DNA of 53,625 nucleotides from an uncultured Patescibacteria group bacterium. GTDB taxonomy: Bacteria; Patescibacteriota; Patescibacteriia; Veblenbacterales; UBA10138. Where the stretch lies: contig CALFUV010000003.1 in assembly GCA_937929825.1 (NCBI GenBank), forward strand, positions 1-53,625, in the 5' to 3' direction. The translations under genes were made by a program, and so were the position numbers. Below are positions 523 to 13,812 of this stretch, piece after piece. Position 1 is the stretch's first letter; every line of letters begins with the position of its first letter. The notes beneath the pieces are model-generated. The model did no database searches, had not been told where the DNA came from, and saw only the letters and a program-made list of their open reading frames with translations.

Positions 523-598
523 GCCGACCTAGCTCAATTGGCAGAGCAACGGTATCGTAAACCGTAGGTTCCGGGTTCAATTCCCGGGGTCGGCTCCA
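523..598 (+). tRNA. tRNA-Thr (anticodon CGU), CCA encoded
   Basis: Cloverleaf read by eye. Acceptor GCCGACC/GGTCGGC, D arm GCTC-AATTGGC-AGAGC, anticodon arm ACGGT-ATCGTAA-ACCGT (CGT at positions 34-36). Variable loop AGGTT, T arm CCGGG-TTCAATT-CCCGG, discriminator T plus CCA. Total 76 nt. Confidence 0.93.
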
Positions 599-2388: not shown

Positions 2389-4182
2389 TTATTTTTCTTT
2401 GCTTACCAAAGCAATATAAGCTTCTGGTGGAATATCAACTCTGCCTGAAAGACGCATTCTTTTTTTGCCGGCTTTCTGTTTTTCCAATAATTTACGTTTG
2501 CGAGTTACGTCGCCTCCGTATAATTTAGCTGTGACATCTTTACGCAGAGCAGGTAATTTTTCCGAAGCTAAAATTCGTCCACCCACAGCTGCTTGAATTT
2601 TAACCTCAAATAATTGACGTGGTAAAAGATCCTTTAAACGACTAACAATACTACGAGCCCGATGATAAGCCTCATCTTCATAAACAATGGTAGCCAAAGA
2701 TTCAACCTCTTCATCTGCTACTAAAATATCTAATCTTTTTACACGACAAGGTCTGTAGCCAATGAAATCATAATTCAATGAAGCATAACCGGCGCTAACA
2801 CTTTTAATTCGGTCATAAAATTCCACTAAAATTGAATTTAAGGGCATTTCATAACGTAAAATAGCCCGACGACCTTCTTCTCGGGCCGCGCCTAAATAAT
2901 CAGTAGTTAAATATTGGCCGCGAAAATCTTGTGCGGTGGACATTAAACCACCCAAGTATTGTAATGGAGCCACTATATCAACACGTACAAATGGTTCACG
3001 AATTTCAATTATTTTATCAGGGGTAGGTAATTCCAAAGCACTGTGAATAGTTATAATTTCTTTATTTTTAAGCTCCACCTCATGAGCAACTGATGGTGTG
3101 GTGACTATAACATTTAGACCGTATTCACGTTTCAACCTTTCACGAGTTATATCAAGATGTAACAATCCTAAAAAACCGCAACGAAAACCATAACCTAGGG
3201 CTGGCGAATGTTCGCCTTCATAAGTTAAACTGGCATCATTTAAACTGAGTTTAGCCAAAGCATCACGTAAGCGAGCTGCTTCTTGTCCGCCTACCGGATA
3301 AAAACCAGCAAAAACCATGGATCTCACTTCTTTATAACCCGGTAAAGGTTTATGATTACTCCCATTTTTAGTTAAAGTATCACCCACCCTTACTTGACGA
3401 ATATCTTTTAAAGCTGTTATCACATAACCAATTGAGCCAGTGTTTAATTGGGCGCAAATCTTTGGTTTAGGGGTGAAAGTGCCAACTTCCAATAGCACAC
3501 CAGTTGCCCCGGTACCTAATAATTTATAATTAAGTCCGGGAGTCAATTGCCCATCAGTTACTCTAACAGCTGCTATCACTCCCCGATAATCATCATAACG
3601 TGAATCAAAAATTAAAGCGCAAGCGGCTGTAGTATTTCTTATAATTGGCGGAGGTATATCTGTAATAATTTTTTGTAAGACTTCATTAACGCCCACACCT
3701 GATTTGGCCGAAATACGTAAAATACTTCTTGAATCAATGTTTAATAACTGGGCCAATTGTTCAGCAGTCGTTTCAGGATTAGCAGCCGGTAAATCAATTT
3801 TATTGATAACGGGAATTATTTTTAAACCAACAGTTTGAGCTAATTCTAAATTGGCAATTGTCTGTGCTTGTACACCTTGTGTAGCATCAACTAATAATAT
3901 GGCGCCTTCTACACAAGCTAAAGAACGAGAGACTTCATAAGTAAAATCCACGTGTCCGGGGGTATCTATTAAATTTAATTCATAGCCATGCCAATGCATG
4001 GTAACTGGTTGAAGTTTAATGGTTATACCCCGTTCTCTTTCCAAATCCATTTGATCAAGTATTTGTTCCTGCATTTCTCTTTTTGCCACAGTACCGGTAA
4101 TTTCCAAAAAACGATCAGCTAAAGTTGATTTACCATGATCAATGTGAGCAATAATGCAAAAATTACGAATCTTAACACTCAT
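2389..4182 (-). CDS. lepA: Elongation factor 4 (LepA)
   Basis: 597 aa. GTPase motifs AHIDHGKST, DTPGH and NKID, with a LepA-type C-terminal domain. ATGA overlap with the murJ stop. Confidence 0.97.
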   Translation of the reverse strand: MSVKIRNFCIIAHIDHGKSTLADRFLEITGTVAKREMQEQILDQMDLERERGITIKLQPVTMHWHGYELNLIDTPGHVDFTYEVSRSLACVEGAILLVDATQGVQAQTIANLELAQTVGLKIIPVINKIDLPAANPETTAEQLAQLLNIDSRSILRISAKSGVGVNEVLQKIITDIPPPIIRNTTAACALIFDSRYDDYRGVIAAVRVTDGQLTPGLNYKLLGTGATGVLLEVGTFTPKPKICAQLNTGSIGYVITALKDIRQVRVGDTLTKNGSNHKPLPGYKEVRSMVFAGFYPVGGQEAARLRDALAKLSLNDASLTYEGEHSPALGYGFRCGFLGLLHLDITRERLKREYGLNVIVTTPSVAHEVELKNKEIITIHSALELPTPDKIIEIREPFVRVDIVAPLQYLGGLMSTAQDFRGQYLTTDYLGAAREEGRRAILRYEMPLNSILVEFYDRIKSVSAGYASLNYDFIGYRPCRVKRLDILVADEEVESLATIVYEDEAYHRARSIVSRLKDLLPRQLFEVKIQAAVGGRILASEKLPALRKDVTAKLYGGDVTRKRKLLEKQKAGKKRMRLSGRVDIPPEAYIALVSKEK

Positions 4183-5780
4183 ACGTTGGATGAATTATAA
4201 TTCTTGATTACTCGCCAAGCTGAAATTAACCAGCTGCGTACAAAATTAAGTTCTGACATACCTATAGCTAAACTCACCGCTAAATAACTAAAAATTCCCA
4301 CCAGACCAGCGCTTAACCCTTGAATAAAAATACCCCAAAAAGTATTCATATTAACAAATGGCTCTATCAAATAAAGAGTACCGTAGGCTGTGGCGGCAGC
4401 TGCTAAACTGCCCAATGACATTTGCCAAACTCCATTGATAATATGTTTAGAGCCTAAACTGCCTAAACGTTTACCAAGAAATATAATTAATACCAGTAAA
4501 TTAGTAAGACTGGAAAAAATATAGGCTAAACCTACACCAGCTAAACCATAAGATTTAAGTGTTATGAGTAAACCTAAATTAACAATTATACTTAAAAAAG
4601 CAGCTATCACAGGAGTTTTAGTATCTTGTAAAGCATAAAATGTCCGGGCCACTAAAGGTATTAAACTATCTGAAACAATTGCTAAAGCCAGAAAACCAAG
4701 TACCTGGGCGGTACGAATAGTATCATACCAATTAAAAGCACCACTGCCTAAAATAACTCGTACCAATTGTGCCCGTAGCACCAAAAAAAGCACGGATAAT
4801 GGAATAACATAAAAAAGCACTCGCCTGATATTTTGGCTAAAGTGATTTATAAATTCTTGGTGTTGACCAAGACTTCTGCTGCGACTAAGTAATGGAAAAA
4901 CAGCCACTGCTAAAGAAACTCCAAAAACATTAATTGGAAAACTATGTAAATTTAAAGCCAAACTATAGGCTGCTAAACTGCCCACTGTTAAGGCAGAAAT
5001 AAAACTTACTGTAACTATTTGATTAATTTGTGCTGCCATTAAACCCAAAGTTCTGGGACCTAGTAAACGCAAAAAATTAAAAACCGCTGAATCACCTAAA
5101 GGCCAAAGCGGATGCCAACGCCACCCCAAATGCCAGATTGACCATAATTGCAACAACATATGTAAGAAACTACCTAAAACTACCCCCCACGCTAAACCAA
5201 TTGCGCCTCCGCGTGGTACAAACCAGAATAAACCAGCTATAATACCTAAATTATAAAAAATAGGTGCGGCGGCAAAAGCAATTAAACGCTGTTGAGCTTG
5301 TAATAAACTGCCGAATAAGTTGGAAATACCAAAAATCACTACTGCCAATAGCATTATACGAGCAAGCTTAACCGTTAAAACTATATTAGCTAGATCAAAA
5401 CCGGGCGCAATTATTTTAACTAAATAAGGTGCCAACCCAATACCAATAATAACAAAAAAAACTAAAATTATAGTTAGTAAATTAAGTATCCTATTTCCCA
5501 GATCCCAAGCGGCTTTTAACCCCTGTTTTTCGCGGCGTTCAATAAAAATTGGTATTAAAGCCGTGGCCAAAGCACCTAAAACCAGAGTATTAAATATTAA
5601 ATCAGGCAGGCGAAAAGCGGCATAATAAGAATCCAAAATGTATCCAGCACCAAATGTTGAGGCTAGAAATCTATCGCGTAATACTCCTACCAACCGTGAA
5701 ATAACAGAAAAAACTGCTACAATAATGGCTCCCCGACTAACCTCATCCCCCCAGCCATTAAAAGTAATAAATTTGTTCAT
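4179..5780 (-). CDS. murJ: Lipid II flippase MurJ (MviN family, MOP superfamily)
   Basis: 533 aa polytopic membrane protein. N-terminus SRLVGVLRDRFLASTFGAG...DSYYAAFRLPD is typical of MurJ/MviN. Confidence 0.9.
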   Translation of the reverse strand: MNKFITFNGWGDEVSRGAIIVAVFSVISRLVGVLRDRFLASTFGAGYILDSYYAAFRLPDLIFNTLVLGALATALIPIFIERREKQGLKAAWDLGNRILNLLTIILVFFVIIGIGLAPYLVKIIAPGFDLANIVLTVKLARIMLLAVVIFGISNLFGSLLQAQQRLIAFAAAPIFYNLGIIAGLFWFVPRGGAIGLAWGVVLGSFLHMLLQLWSIWHLGWRWHPLWPLGDSAVFNFLRLLGPRTLGLMAAQINQIVTVSFISALTVGSLAAYSLALNLHSFPINVFGVSLAVAVFPLLSRSRSLGQHQEFINHFSQNIRRVLFYVIPLSVLFLVLRAQLVRVILGSGAFNWYDTIRTAQVLGFLALAIVSDSLIPLVARTFYALQDTKTPVIAAFLSIIVNLGLLITLKSYGLAGVGLAYIFSSLTNLLVLIIFLGKRLGSLGSKHIINGVWQMSLGSLAAAATAYGTLYLIEPFVNMNTFWGIFIQGLSAGLVGIFSYLAVSLAIGMSELNFVRSWLISAWRVIKNYNSSNV

Positions 5781-5798
5781 TTACAGCTATTAATTATT

Positions 5799-5965
5799 AA
5801 AAAAATAAGAGTTCTGTTTGGCTGGAGGTGAGAAGGCTTGAAGTGACCAAAATACTGGTATCCAAGCATGAAGGGTGTACAGCTCACACTAGTTAGCGTG
5901 CCCATACAGTCCTCCAGTTCATTCTCTAAACCCCCCAACCAAACAAAACTCTTGTTAAAAAGATA
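5799..5965 (-). ncRNA. Unclassified structured RNA (Y-shaped, about 150-170 nt): stable sRNA or murJ leader
   Basis: GC-enriched island in an AT-rich spacer. On the minus strand: 22-bp closing helix (5932-5953 with 5807-5828) and a 5-bp P2 (5922-5926 / 5830-5834). A tight three-way junction carries arms 5869-5921 and 5836-5867. At least five G.U pairs would be A.C mismatches on the plus strand. Flanked by a consensus promoter and a U7 run (5799-5805). Ends are approximate. Confidence 0.55.
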
Positions 5966-5971
5966 TCTTAA

Positions 5972-6000
5972 TTATTAGCATAATTATGTTTATTTGTCAA
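5972..6000 (-). promoter_or_regulatory. Sigma70-type promoter of the structured RNA
   Basis: Minus strand: TTGACA (5995-6000), a 17-nt spacer ending in TGC, then TAATAA (5972-5977). Same layout and TTGACAAAT-N11-TGCTAAT core as the rnpB promoter. Confidence 0.5.
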
Positions 6001-6027
6001 TATCTTATCTATTTAAATTTTTAAAAA

Positions 6028-8556
6028 TTACATCTTTTCTAATATAATTCCATAAAAATCATCTTGTTGCCAATCACTTCTAAATTCCATTTTATTATTG
6101 CTTAAATAAGGTTGGCGTGATGATTCTTGCCAACGTAAACGAAAATTTTCAGGCCAAGTAATTTCTGACACAAAATCAAGCGGTTTAACACCAGATTGCC
6201 GTTGGAATAGTACAGCATAACGACGTAAATCTTGCCAAGTTGGACCTGGTTTAAGTTTCCAAGGCAAACGATAAACTAATTCAACTGTTTTTTTTTCACC
6301 CGGAGAAACACTCAGCCAATTAGCAAAAACTGTTTTGCCAAATTCTTCTGTTATTCGTGTGCCGGAAAAAATATCATAAACAATCTCTTTTTCTATTAAT
6401 TTTAAATAAATATCATCTTCAGCTTCTTCAGGTATTGGCCGGTAATAATTAAGTGGTGGTGGCGTAAACCCTTGAGTAGCTAAAAGTTGTGAACCGGCAG
6501 GTACATAAAAACGCAAATAAGTTACATTGCGACGACTTTCAAAAGTATCTCTGGCCTCACCCTGATGCTGGCGGGTTAATGATAATCTCACAATTAGTTC
6601 ACCTGTGGGAGATATTTCTAAATGATGTCTGATTTTTTCCTTTATAACAGCATCAGTTTTTCCTCCCCCTATATTGGTCCTAACAATCGCTAAATAATCA
6701 GTCGGGGTTGTTTGTATTTCACCGGCCCAACCAAGTTTGATAAACTGGGCCTGAATATTAGGGTCAGTTGAATATAATTGTAAACCCCGATTTAATAAAC
6801 TAGCATTAACTAGAGCACTTAATTTAACTAAATCCCCACCCTCCAAGTTTAGTAGACGAATAAAGAGTTCAGGTGCTAAATCCGCTATAAATTGTTTGGG
6901 ACGATTGATATTACGATCGTATTCTATTTCTACAGCTGCTTGAGTTTCGCGCATAAAATTATCAGCTGTTAAAACTTTACCGTATTTAGACAACTCAATT
7001 GGACCAGTAATTTTTAACAATTCAATAACCACGTCAGAATTTAGGGCTACTAAACCATGGGTCTCTGGGCCACCTGATTCTTTAAGAAACCACATTATTT
7101 TACGAGCTGAAGTCGGAAAATCAAAAAACCAGTTAGCATCTTGCAATTGCCAAGTTCCGCGTACTAATCTAAGTGGTTCTGGTGGTCTAATAATTTTTGA
7201 CAATGAACCTTGAAAATCATAAGGTCCGCCTCCGGGTATATCTATTGAACGCACTTCTCCATTTTCTAAGGCAATTAAAGCCAAACTACCGGCAAATCCA
7301 CCTGTTGGTCTCAATTCACTTGTATTTTGAAAAATAATTACGTAAGTACGGAGCTCATTAGTAACTAATAATTGACGTAGTAGTTGTGGTACTGATAGTA
7401 TTGAATTCAAATTTACTTCCAACTCAGTTAATTGCTGACGTACGATAGTTAATGCTTTATTATAATCTGCCGGCAGGCTAGATACATCAACTTGATTTAG
7501 GTGTTGGCTGGCTTTACTAAGACGAAGTTTAATATCAGTCGTAGCTTGACTTAGAATATTTAAACTTGACGTCAGATTAAATATTCCATTTGTTTCAAGA
7601 TTATTCAATTCAGTCAAAGTATTTGCTGCTAATACCGCTGCTTCCGTTATTTCCTGACTGGCTGATATAATTAGACGGGCAGCCTCAAGTTTACCCGCTG
7701 CTAATGGTAATTTACCTATTAGACCGGATAATTCACCGTTTAACCCTTGAGCTGAAGCTTGTGCTTTTTCAAATGACTCTTTAGCCAATATTAATTGCTC
7801 TTGAGCTAATTGACTATTACCAGCAGCTATTAAACTGCCGGCCTTTTCCAGCCCCTGAAAACCACTATTGGTTAAATTAATTAATTCATAACCACGATTA
7901 TTTAAATTTTGCCAAGTGGCCACACCTTTAAGAGGTAAAATAACTACAAAAGCTAAAATCAAAAAAAATATTGCCTGCCGCCAAGCCGATAACTTGACTA
8001 AAGAGTTTTTATTGGCTATGGAAAAATATCGTTTGTATCTCTGACCTGTTTTAATCTTAATTAACAAAAAAGGAACCTGAATAACACTTTGTACTATATT
8101 AAAAAATAATTTAATATCCTGACCAACAGATCTCATAAGCCAACAAAATTCCTGATGTAATTTAAATAATAATGTTAAACCTAAAAGCCAGAATAAATCC
8201 ATTAACCAGATAATGATTTCTAAAACTAACCATAAACTTAAATCACGACCGGTAGGCCAAATTAAACCAAGTTTTTTAATAAAACCATAAAGAGAATAAT
8301 TATTTTTATCAAAAGGTTTAAGAAAATTAATCTCTGGCCTAGTATTAATTACTTCTTTAGATGATAATGAAGCAGAAGATGTTTTGCGCCTATCAATAGC
8401 AGACCGAAGATTAATTACGTGACGAGACAACTTCACTTGTTCGCGTCCACTTAATTTTATTTCACCTTCATCAATAAATAATTGCCACCAAGGCCAATGA
8501 ATATTATCTAATGGTTTATCAGTTTTTGATGATAATCTTTTCTTAGTTCTGGACAT
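6028..8556 (-). CDS. DUF4012 domain-containing envelope protein
   Basis: 842 aa. N-terminal cytoplasmic segment, TM helices, a long coiled-coil/Ala-Gln-rich region, then the DUF4012-like core (NTSELRPTGGFAGSLALI...GGGPYDF...ANWFFDFP). Family assignment is from memory of the motif. Confidence 0.7.
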   Translation of the reverse strand: MSRTKKRLSSKTDKPLDNIHWPWWQLFIDEGEIKLSGREQVKLSRHVINLRSAIDRRKTSSASLSSKEVINTRPEINFLKPFDKNNYSLYGFIKKLGLIWPTGRDLSLWLVLEIIIWLMDLFWLLGLTLLFKLHQEFCWLMRSVGQDIKLFFNIVQSVIQVPFLLIKIKTGQRYKRYFSIANKNSLVKLSAWRQAIFFLILAFVVILPLKGVATWQNLNNRGYELINLTNSGFQGLEKAGSLIAAGNSQLAQEQLILAKESFEKAQASAQGLNGELSGLIGKLPLAAGKLEAARLIISASQEITEAAVLAANTLTELNNLETNGIFNLTSSLNILSQATTDIKLRLSKASQHLNQVDVSSLPADYNKALTIVRQQLTELEVNLNSILSVPQLLRQLLVTNELRTYVIIFQNTSELRPTGGFAGSLALIALENGEVRSIDIPGGGPYDFQGSLSKIIRPPEPLRLVRGTWQLQDANWFFDFPTSARKIMWFLKESGGPETHGLVALNSDVVIELLKITGPIELSKYGKVLTADNFMRETQAAVEIEYDRNINRPKQFIADLAPELFIRLLNLEGGDLVKLSALVNASLLNRGLQLYSTDPNIQAQFIKLGWAGEIQTTPTDYLAIVRTNIGGGKTDAVIKEKIRHHLEISPTGELIVRLSLTRQHQGEARDTFESRRNVTYLRFYVPAGSQLLATQGFTPPPLNYYRPIPEEAEDDIYLKLIEKEIVYDIFSGTRITEEFGKTVFANWLSVSPGEKKTVELVYRLPWKLKPGPTWQDLRRYAVLFQRQSGVKPLDFVSEITWPENFRLRWQESSRQPYLSNNKMEFRSDWQQDDFYGIILEKM

Positions 8557-8625: not shown

Positions 8626-9738
8626 TTAATAACTTCTTAGTTTGTTTTGACAACTTTCATAAACTAATTTCGTTTGTTTAACTGTTTCTTGCCAAGAATA
8701 AGTTTTTAGTATTTTATTAGTCTGAAAACTTAATTCTTTTCGTATAGCCGGTAATAAAGATTTTTCTACAGCTTGAGCAATAGCCATAGGCTCTTCGGGT
8801 TTAGCATAAATAGCTGCTTGTCCTAAAATTTCTTTTAAAACTGGTATATCAGAAGCTACCACTATAGCTTGCTGGCTTAATGCTTCAACTGCTCCTAAAC
8901 CAAAACCTTCCTGAAAAGATAAAATAAGATAAACCAAACAACCTCGATAAAGACTAGCCAGCTCAGAGTCTGAAACGTCCGTTATTTGTTTAACCCATTT
9001 ATCATATCCGGCAACCTTAAGCTCAGTATTTAATCTTCGGCTAAAAAAATCTTCTTTACTTACTAACCATAGTTCTAAATCGGGTATTTTTTTTCTTAGT
9101 AAAGCCACTGCACGTACACAGTTTTCTATGTTTTTATGAGGATACATAGCCCCCACCATTAATAAATATGGTTTATCAGATTTAAATTTTTTAATTTTTG
9201 GTAATTTGGTTGGAGCTAATTTTATAACTTTTATTTTATCTTTACAATCAGGATAATATTGGCTAATATCATTAGCTACTGTCTGACTAACTGTAATAAT
9301 ACACGCAGCTTGTTTAGTTAAACGCCTAAGCAGTACACGATAAGCTAATATTTTACTCCAGTAAAAAGGTCCAGGTAGGGTTGAGGCTCGTTCCGTTGGC
9401 ATATGATGAAGAATAAGATCATGAATAGTAATAACAAATGGCCTTGGACAAAAAAATGGTGCGCTAAAATGAGGAAAATGAACAAGATCAGGTTTTAAAC
9501 GGTTAATCAAATTGGGTATTTCCCATTGTTCTTTAATACTATAAATACGAGCTTGGACTGGATAAGTGTTAAAAAATGATCCTATATTGGTAAATAAAGA
9601 CTGATCACCTTCTTGTACTAACAATGAATAGTGGTGTATTCCCGGGTCGGTAGCTAAACCGTGAACTAATTCCATTATATATCTACCTATACCGCGATGT
9701 TGAAGTCCGTAAAGTCGGGCATCAATTAAAATATTCAT
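8626..9738 (-). CDS. Glycosyltransferase family 4 (GT-B, Glycos_transf_1)
   Basis: 370 aa. C-terminal E-x7-E region EGFGLGAVEALSQQAIVVASDIPVLKEILG. ATGA overlap with the upstream GT. Confidence 0.85.
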   Translation of the reverse strand: MNILIDARLYGLQHRGIGRYIMELVHGLATDPGIHHYSLLVQEGDQSLFTNIGSFFNTYPVQARIYSIKEQWEIPNLINRLKPDLVHFPHFSAPFFCPRPFVITIHDLILHHMPTERASTLPGPFYWSKILAYRVLLRRLTKQAACIITVSQTVANDISQYYPDCKDKIKVIKLAPTKLPKIKKFKSDKPYLLMVGAMYPHKNIENCVRAVALLRKKIPDLELWLVSKEDFFSRRLNTELKVAGYDKWVKQITDVSDSELASLYRGCLVYLILSFQEGFGLGAVEALSQQAIVVASDIPVLKEILGQAAIYAKPEEPMAIAQAVEKSLLPAIRKELSFQTNKILKTYSWQETVKQTKLVYESCQNKLRSY

Positions 9739-13421: not shown

Positions 13422-13812
13422 GCTTGTCACCAATTTGGGCGATTGCTCTGGCTTTTGAGCCTGAGAGGAAAGTCCGAACACCATAGTGTTCCCGCTTTTT
13501 AAAAAGGGAAGGACAACTGCTAATAGCAGCCGTTGGCTTGAGAAATTAAGCCGCAGGACAAGTGCAACAGAAAATAGTCCCGCCTCACGATAGTGAGGTA
13601 AGGGGTGAAACGGTAAGGTAAAAGCTTACCAGCGCGGCTGGTAACAGTCGCGGCTAGGCAAACTCTGTCCGGTGCAATATCAAATAGGGTCCGATTTACG
13701 GACCGGGTTGATAGCTAGAGTTCCTTTGTGAAAAGGAACCAAGATAGATAATCGCCACTCTAAAAATTTTATATAGAGTACAGAATTCGGCTTACAAAAT
13801 TGGTACAAGCTA
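13422..13812 (+). ncRNA. rnpB: RNase P RNA (bacterial type)
   Basis: P1 pairs GCTTGTCACCAATTT (13422-13436) with AAAATTGGTACAAGC (13796-13810). P2 pairs GGCGATT with AATCGCC (about 13750-13756). Universal P4 strands GAGGAAAGTCCG (about 13464-13475) and ACAGAATTCGGCTTAC (about 13780-13795) are present. Ends are approximate. Confidence 0.92.

Follow-up and report, generated by a model that had tools for sequence, protein, structure and literature searches.

Attenuating 5′ leaders of bacteria (riboswitches, T-boxes and ribosomal-protein leaders) consist of an RNA domain that lies 5′ of one class of gene on the same strand, in which covarying stems surround an invariant junction and a helix followed by a U-tract comes just before the open reading frame (ORF). 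The P1 helices of riboswitches are usually a few base pairs long. The 6S RNA of Escherichia coli (ssrS), ∼170–190 nt long, is stable, has its two ends paired in a long closing stem and is made from a strong promoter of its own, with read-through into the co-oriented ygfA gene. Long stems are also found in the rnc and pnp leaders and in the flanks of rRNA, where they are processed by RNase III. In addition, orphan structured non-coding RNA (ncRNA) motifs of bacteria have come from comparative genomics, among them raiA, OLE and the sets of Weinberg and Breaker (PMC2864571, PMC8632094, PMC11109978). Here we describe a Y-shaped structured RNA encoded on the minus strand of a 53,625-nucleotide (nt) stretch of DNA from an uncultured Patescibacteria bacterium (the window), directly 5′ of murJ, the gene for the lipid II flippase. 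It shares with attenuating leaders the position 5′ of one class of gene on the same strand and the covarying stems around an invariant junction, in the window also the helix and U-tract just before the ORF, and with the ssrS–ygfA arrangement the long closing stem, the promoter of its own and the position directly before a co-oriented protein gene. Like RNase III-processed stems, it brings distant 5′ and 3′ segments together in a duplex of 22 bp or more, without interruptions, and this duplex encloses a structured RNA inside an operon. As with the orphan motifs, it is restricted to a clade, backed by covariation, flanked by promoter- and terminator-like sequences and associated with a gene; its fold and sequence are distinct from theirs, and its host clade is the Patescibacteria (candidate phyla radiation, CPR).

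On the minus strand, positions 5806–5955 fold into a Y with a core of ∼150 nt. A closing stem of 22 bp (P1) leads through an internal loop to a short helix (P2) and a three-way junction, with consensus linkers of 5, 1 and 1 nt, from which a long, irregular arm (arm 2) and a compact arm (arm 3) emerge. In the window all 22 P1 pairs are formed, three of them as G·U. The minimum free energy calculated by RNAfold for this strand is −69.8 kcal/mol, compared with −39.5 ± 3.8 kcal/mol for 200 dinucleotide shuffles (z = −7.9), whereas folding of the plus strand gives a z of only −4.15. A covariance model likewise scores the window at 164 bits on the minus strand and at 28 bits on the plus strand. The frequent G·U pairs seen in the homologues (U·G at columns 18/175 in 12 of 18 aligned rows, G·U at columns 127/153 in 13 of 18), taken together with this difference in bit score, place the RNA on the minus strand. 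A sequence-only reading of the window had proposed this same Y, and its 22-bp P1, its P2, both of its arms and all of their coordinates agree with ours; it had called the strand from G·U wobbles, and the alignment and the scores bear it out.

Covariation in the spacers of related genomes, which that reading had called for as a check, turned out to be strongly positive. In a model-based alignment of 18 distinct rows (A4), standard pairs occupy 92.6% of the cells, which drops to 33–48% when the 3′ partners are slid by 1–3 columns. Both sides have changed in 39 of the 59 pairs, and none of 500 column shuffles reached the alignment on any of five measures. Double changes are found in 19 of the 22 pairs of P1, 2 of the 5 of P2 and 17 of the 20 of arm 2. 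The lower helix of arm 3 shows one-sided changes only, all of which are compatible with pairing (G·U to A-U or G-C), and in its upper helix a single pair has changed on both sides. In a second, model-free alignment of 19 sequences (A5, made with MAFFT and RNAalifold), P1, arm 3 and the base of arm 2 emerge again independently, and a C-G to U-A exchange in arm 3 (locus L106) is added. On these comparative data the structure can be regarded as essentially proven, and the pattern of change shows a structured RNA under purifying selection.

Against this background of compensatory change, conservation of sequence is concentrated in four places. These are the inner part of P1 (UGGUUGGRGG / CCUCCAGCCA), P2 (GAGAA-UG / UUCUC), the base of arm 2 (GRACUG-UAC ... 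GUGCAC-YC) and the whole of arm 3 (GCUUGGAUACCA-NNAUUUU-GGUCMCUUCAAGCC), with free variation in the outer half of P1 and at the tip of arm 2. These four parts, which are almost invariant, make up the functional core of the RNA, whose most likely role is to serve as a platform to which a protein or a small ligand binds.

Homologues were collected by three routes. A scan based on MurJ, with one genome per species, gave 80 loci, the closest of which are all from metagenome-assembled genomes (MAGs) of Patescibacteria; nhmmer and blastn matches to the element were limited to the three closest MurJ loci (L001–L003, 50% MurJ identity). Homologues of the protein encoded by the upstream DUF4012 gene were then traced to their contigs, which yielded ten further loci (L081–L088, L106 and L109), in all of which the genes run GT4-GT4-GT4-DUF4012-spacer-murJ-lepA(-divIC). 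The five closest sequences were used to make a covariance model (R1), which matched each of these spacers on the murJ strand with 94–164 bits, and those of L001–L003 with 42–62 bits. To avoid bias from the gene context, metagenomes were also scanned with a DNA pattern for arm 3 alone, GGCTTGAANNGACCN{5,13}TGGTRTNCAA, and 13 of the 17 matches proved to be covariance-model hits. Of these 13, 12 have murJ as the next gene downstream in the same orientation, with lepA next in all 10 that reach that far; the thirteenth (L102) is on a short contig that ends before murJ, and its RNA sequence is the same as that of L003. The neighbourhoods and the context-free scan together gave 19 distinct homologues, each of which precedes murJ in the same orientation, with lepA next wherever the contig is long enough. 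The linkage to murJ is kept even where the gene upstream of the RNA has changed: a hypothetical gene and Maf are found there at L093, Wzy_C has been inserted at L097, and DUF4012 is absent or displaced at L093, L097 and L099.

A second covariance model, built from 18 distinct sequences (R2), found no copy at any of the 77 remaining murJ loci of Patescibacteria, in any of the four chance matches to the pattern or at the two DUF4012 loci that do not adjoin murJ (L107, L108). Neither the pattern nor R2 found a second copy in the window, where the element is single-copy. Three lineages without the RNA (L021, L027 and L035) have DUF4012-murJ-lepA with spacers of 40–63 nt before murJ. The R2 searches and these RNA-less lineages together indicate that the RNA is an innovation of one Patescibacteria clade, to which, as judged by sequence searches, it is restricted. 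The clade extends to ∼36% DUF4012 identity (L001, which holds P0043). Among the DUF4012 relatives, the protein P0018 carries the NCBI label 'Candidatus Kerfeldbacteria'. Several of the TPA MAG records (L001, L004, L008, L010 and others) present Patescibacteria-type DUF4012-murJ-lepA loci under titles such as 'uncultured Gammaproteobacteria/Bdellovibrionales bacterium', which are probable mislabels. As to a murJ leader shared with other lineages, the spacers there are mostly 0–120 nt, and no common motif was found among four of the longer ones that were folded (L005, L007, L017, L018). Two spacers of ∼265 nt before murJ in lineages without the RNA (L005:3719–3985 and L018:2884–3155) have a common sequence from AUGGAA onwards, which looks like a small, unannotated ORF rather than an RNA.

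The RNA has a promoter of its own. The sigma-70-type TTGACA-17-TAATAA that had been read from the window alone is conserved, in that TTGACA-17-TAnnnT is found upstream of the RNA in 19 of 19 homologues (as TTGACT once), with the TG of an extended −10 in ∼12 of the 19. The −35 hexamer starts 35–57 nt before the first position of the model, which itself starts 2 nt 5′ of P1. A promoter scan calls the same site in the window in a slightly different register, as TTGACA-18-AATAAT (11/12, at 6000–5971 on the minus strand). From the position of the −10 element, transcription would start near 5965.

On the 3′ side, the A-U7 that follows P1 in the window and the 18 nt that remain before the murJ ATG at 5780 are where they had been placed. 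The terminator scan could not have flagged P1/U7, given its loop limit of 8 nt. Across the homologues, at least four U in the 8 nt after P1 are found in 10 of 19. In the window subclade (the window and L081–L084) the tracts are U-rich, the gap between P1 and the murJ ATG is 12–28 nt, and no promoter-like site was found in it. In seven other members (L087, L088, L093, L097, L098, L099 and L103) P1 has a GC-rich end, to which UUUU(U) is joined without a gap. The U-run claimed for the window thus stands there and is absent from L085, L086 and L096; in L001–L003 and L106, as described below, it is borne by a second RNA instead. The companion claim that murJ has no room for a promoter of its own likewise stands for the window subclade and fails for L088, L099 and L103, which have a second promoter-like site in this interval. 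The coordinates of the features in the window and of those found only in relatives are collected in Table 1.

Table 1. Features of the Y-shaped RNA and its surroundings; positions refer to the window unless a locus is named
Feature	Position	Strand	Remarks
Sigma-70-type promoter	5971–6000	minus	TTGACA (6000–5995), 17-nt spacer with TG at −15/−14, TAATAA(T)
Short 5′ tail	5954–5965	minus	Unpaired, from the predicted start; tails of homologues vary in length and are unconserved
P1, 5′ strand (22 nt)	5932–5953	minus	AAGAGUUUUGUUUGGUUGGGGG; outer half covaries, inner UGGUUGGRGG conserved
Internal loop	5927–5931	minus	GUUUA, opposite A5829
P2, 5′ strand	5922–5926	minus	GAGAA; 100% paired; the following UG (conserved 'AUG') belongs to the junction
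Junction linker and arm 2	5869–5921	minus	Linker UGAAC; arm long and irregular, with conserved base GRACUG-UAC / GUGCAC-YC and variable tip
Arm 3	5836–5867	minus	GCUUGGAUACCA-loop-UGGUCACUUCAAGC; compact, near-invariant including bulges and loop
Linker, P2 3′ strand and bulge	5829–5835	minus	Linker C, UUCUC (5834–5830), bulged A5829
P1, 3′ strand	5807–5828	minus	CCUCCAGCCAAACAGAACUCUU; CCUCCAGCCA conserved, remainder covaries
U7 tract	5799–5805	minus	Follows P1, preceded by A (5806); terminator/attenuator-like 3′ end
AU-rich 18-nt spacer	5781–5798	minus	Ends at the murJ ATG (5780); no Shine-Dalgarno, no good promoter
murJ	4179–5780	minus	533 aa, lipid II flippase; PF03023, E = 2e-83 (Pfam)
lepA (EF4)	2389–4182	minus	4-nt overlap with the end of murJ, including its stop; in one operon with murJ
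DUF4012 gene	6028–8556	minus	Pfam; usual but non-obligatory upstream neighbour of the RNA
GT4 glycosyltransferase gene	8626–9738	minus	Pfam
RNA2	L001:3728–3925, L002:3300–3500, L003:2778–2972, L106:6257–6431		Absent from the window
Second promoter-like site	L088:6530–6557, L099:737–765, L103:309–337		−35 overlaps the U-tract after P1

The succession of murJ and lepA, found in 64 of the 80 Patescibacteria loci, is itself unusually stable for a flippase gene and the gene of a translation GTPase. In one subclade (L001–L003 and L106) the interval from the Y-shaped RNA to murJ contains a second, unrelated structured RNA of ∼190 nt, here called RNA2. Its long closing stem (CAGGCUACC.../...GGUAGCCUG) leads to a branched tip, a conserved AACUCUCUYCYC is single-stranded, and the RNA ends in a stem and a U-run, with a folding z of −9 to −10. 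In these four loci the Y-shaped RNA has no U-tract of its own and is followed by RNA2. A comparison of RNA2 with Rfam gave no match, and it looks like another uncatalogued RNA; an RNA2-like match to a pattern in L020 was set aside as a chance hit.

The Y-shaped RNA constitutes a new orphan family of structured bacterial RNA that belongs to no catalogued family, as the label 'unclassified' had anticipated. At the gathering score of Rfam 15, the only matches in the whole window, with ARAGORN included, were a class A RNase P RNA (13427–13810 on the plus strand, 234 bits) and tRNA-Thr(CGU) (523–598, plus strand), and no family was assigned to the element in L001–L003. When the threshold was relaxed to E ≤ 10 for positions 5700–6100 of the window and for the divergent L002, L088 and L099, the matches were unrelated noise (snoRNAs, a long non-coding RNA and a frameshift element) in which no family recurred. 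Full-text searches of the literature found no description of an RNA motif associated with murJ/mviN, nor of a comparable ncRNA from CPR/Patescibacteria, and murJ, mviN, flippase, Patescibacteria and DUF4012 are not named in the main text of the two orphan-motif papers searched. With 6S RNA it has in common a length of ∼150–200 nt, paired ends and a promoter of its own, which are shared by many stable RNAs and are not diagnostic; 6S RNA is a rod in which a large single-stranded bubble separates the closing stem from a terminal stem, whereas the Y-shaped RNA has a tight three-way junction and no large central bubble, and there is no match to RF00013 at E ≤ 10. Helix 8 (domain IV) of signal recognition particle (SRP) RNA carries a GNRA-type tetraloop and conserved symmetric and asymmetric loops. 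In the Y-shaped RNA the tip of arm 2 is variable and the loop of arm 3 is NNAUUUU, and no Rfam SRP family matched at E ≤ 10. Y RNAs, which associate with Ro/Rsr, have a conserved bulged helix for Ro binding and are encoded next to rsr (Ro60/TROVE). Y RNA/YrlA gave no Rfam match either, and the neighbours scanned (DUF4012, MurJ, LepA and GT4) are not Rsr, for which the genome itself was not searched. The tmRNA, T-boxes and the known riboswitches were excluded by Rfam and by inspection.

What the RNA does was approached from its position. The sequence-only reading had offered a stable small RNA (sRNA) with read-through into murJ and a leader or attenuator of murJ, and these are still the two leading interpretations; we slightly favour the leader/attenuator over the stand-alone sRNA. 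In the form that we tentatively propose, and in which our confidence stops somewhat short of even, the RNA would be a leader/attenuator of murJ–lepA whose invariant junction core binds an effector, a protein being likelier than a metabolite. Transcription would start from the RNA's own sigma-70-type promoter. As P1 runs straight into the U-tract, many transcripts should end at U7, giving a discrete RNA of ∼165–175 nt, and those polymerases that read past U7 would continue into murJ–lepA. We infer termination at P1/U7, the read-through and the existence of an effector from this arrangement. In the lineage of the window, read-through would be the only source of murJ–lepA mRNA from the promoter of the RNA, and because the 18-nt gap fits no promoter, the RNA would there be the obligatory 5′ leader and the attenuation point of the two genes.

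Several observations weigh against a leader/attenuator, and most of them speak at the same time for an abundant stand-alone sRNA, acting in trans or as a ribonucleoprotein (RNP), with the position before murJ a matter of inherited synteny and any read-through incidental. The RNA differs from attenuating leaders in that its P1 is 22 bp long, no alternative pairing is conserved, the promoter is inside the conserved unit and several members have a second promoter downstream. The 22-bp P1 is expected to form whether an effector is present or not, its length being too great for switching, and a conserved, mutually exclusive structure that could serve as an expression platform was not found. A near-consensus promoter, conserved in all 19 homologues, and ends clamped by a helix of 22–27 bp, with a U-tract next in most members, are typical of stable RNAs that stand alone. 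The U-tract after P1 is missing in L085, L086 and L096. L088, L099 and L103 have a further promoter-like site, TTGAAT/TTGATT-16/17-TATACT, after the RNA and before murJ, so that murJ need not rely on read-through there; the site would imply that these lineages make murJ transcripts with a short leader that do not depend on the RNA promoter. The same TTGAAT/TTGATT-TATACT sequence is found in L097, TATACT alone at that place in L093 and L098, and TATAAT between the RNA and murJ in L002 and L106. In L003 an unrelated ORF of 215 aa without a Pfam match separates RNA2, with its terminator, from murJ. That other subclades have either RNA2 or a further promoter-like site in the interval before murJ points to an independent small-RNA gene. 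In L093, moreover, a hairpin and T-run can be discerned by eye before the promoter of the RNA (no tool flagged it), and since the sister lineages L021, L027 and L035 run DUF4012-murJ-lepA without the RNA, murJ does not need it. The 6S RNA offers an analogy, in that ssrS lies before ygfA in E. coli and is co-transcribed with it.

Other observations, however, fit poorly with an RNA that acts on its own. In 19 distinct lineages, with the context-free hits included, it is never found away from murJ or inverted with respect to it. In five lineages only 12–28 nt are left before the ATG, and the RNA is for that reason physically the 5′ untranslated region of murJ. Three members have no U-tract, and the conserved nucleotides are mostly in helices and at the junction, whereas sRNAs that act by base pairing expose theirs in a single-stranded seed. 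We regard the stand-alone sRNA as a serious possibility, but one that we trust less than the leader/attenuator. There is a more specific version of the leader/attenuator, which we consider unlikely, in which the junction core would respond to a signal from the cell envelope, be it a precursor of peptidoglycan or lipid II or a protein reporting on such a precursor, and would set the expression of MurJ and LepA through termination or processing at P1.

It is also improbable, and rather more so, that the RNA is in essence a module for RNase III processing and stability, in which a cut in P1 would free the RNA from a GT4-DUF4012-murJ-lepA transcript and set the 5′ end and the half-life of the murJ mRNA. 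P1 is an uninterrupted duplex of 22 bp whose outer half covaries freely, such that length and pairing are kept and not sequence, which recalls the long stems of the rnc and pnp leaders and of the rRNA flanks. In the window, the interval from DUF4012 to the RNA showed no terminator-like site, and transcripts of the operon would therefore include the RNA. Such a module, however, leaves unexplained both the ∼50 invariant nucleotides of arm 3, P2 and the junction and the dedicated, conserved promoter; it is in its conserved three-way-junction core and this promoter that the RNA differs from RNase III-processed stems. Processing by RNase III may coexist with either of the two leading readings, and could then be a further layer on top of the main function.

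That the RNA is a metabolite riboswitch of the conventional type, with a ligand at the junction toggling a terminator or the ribosome-binding site of murJ, seems to us if anything more doubtful still. The pattern of covarying stems with an invariant junction and invariant internal loops is like that of an aptamer, and the RNA is 5′ of, and co-oriented with, one class of gene. In the GC-rich members, where the outer P1 is consistently C-rich on its 5′ side and G-rich on its 3′ side, CCUCC in the 3′ strand of P1 can pair with the G-rich outer part of that strand to form a local hairpin followed by UUUU (L088:6509–6527 and L103:288–306), which the scan flagged as terminator-like and which could be an alternative fold. 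The window subclade has no such hairpin. Moreover, the 22-bp P1 persists in the extended fold and is too stable to be a ligand-switched P1, which makes a conventional riboswitch the less likely form of action in cis. No conserved pairing that would serve as an anti-terminator or sequester a Shine-Dalgarno sequence was found, several members have the second promoter downstream, and there is no likeness to any riboswitch in Rfam. A separate candidate for an alternative pairing lies within murJ itself: at 5747–5757 on the minus strand, in codons 8–12, UGGCUGGGGGG is a near-repeat of the inner 5′ strand of P1 (UGGUUGGGGGG) and the perfect complement of CCUCCAGCCA in its 3′ strand. It was rejected, as relatives do not have the repeat and P1 still dominates the extended fold.

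Finally, the notion that there is no RNA element at all, but a chance hairpin, a miniature inverted-repeat transposable element (MITE), a DNA operator or a small protein gene (the 53-aa ORF at 5777–5938), has in its favour a MITE-like long inverted repeat in a GC-rich island and the arrangement GGAGG-8/10-AUG with an ORF, and it is effectively refuted by an element that is single-copy in the window and holds its position before murJ at all loci, by G·U pairs and covariation specific to one strand, and by the replacement of the AUG with AUA in L097 and L099 and frames from the junction AUG that range from 2 to more than 40 codons (L083 and L084 have 2, the window has 9 and L085 has a long frame), with no conserved peptide.

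The Patescibacteria (CPR) are a huge and mostly uncultured radiation with reduced genomes, and murJ serves an essential step in the making of the cell wall that belongs to a class of antibiotic targets. The Y-shaped RNA is a solid, well-supported candidate at the level of a discovery: a structured RNA with covariation support and its own promoter that is missing from Rfam and forms a family for annotators to add. The two alignments, A4 and A5, are ready for model building, and at ∼150 nt the RNA is small enough for straightforward biochemistry. If it acts in trans, the CPR bacteria would have in it a stable RNA or RNP of a new kind, and if in cis, it would be a new regulatory RNA for peptidoglycan export. 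Should the junction core sense the state of the cell envelope, it would be the first RNA sensor tied to lipid II flipping, in an episymbiotic lineage of the CPR.

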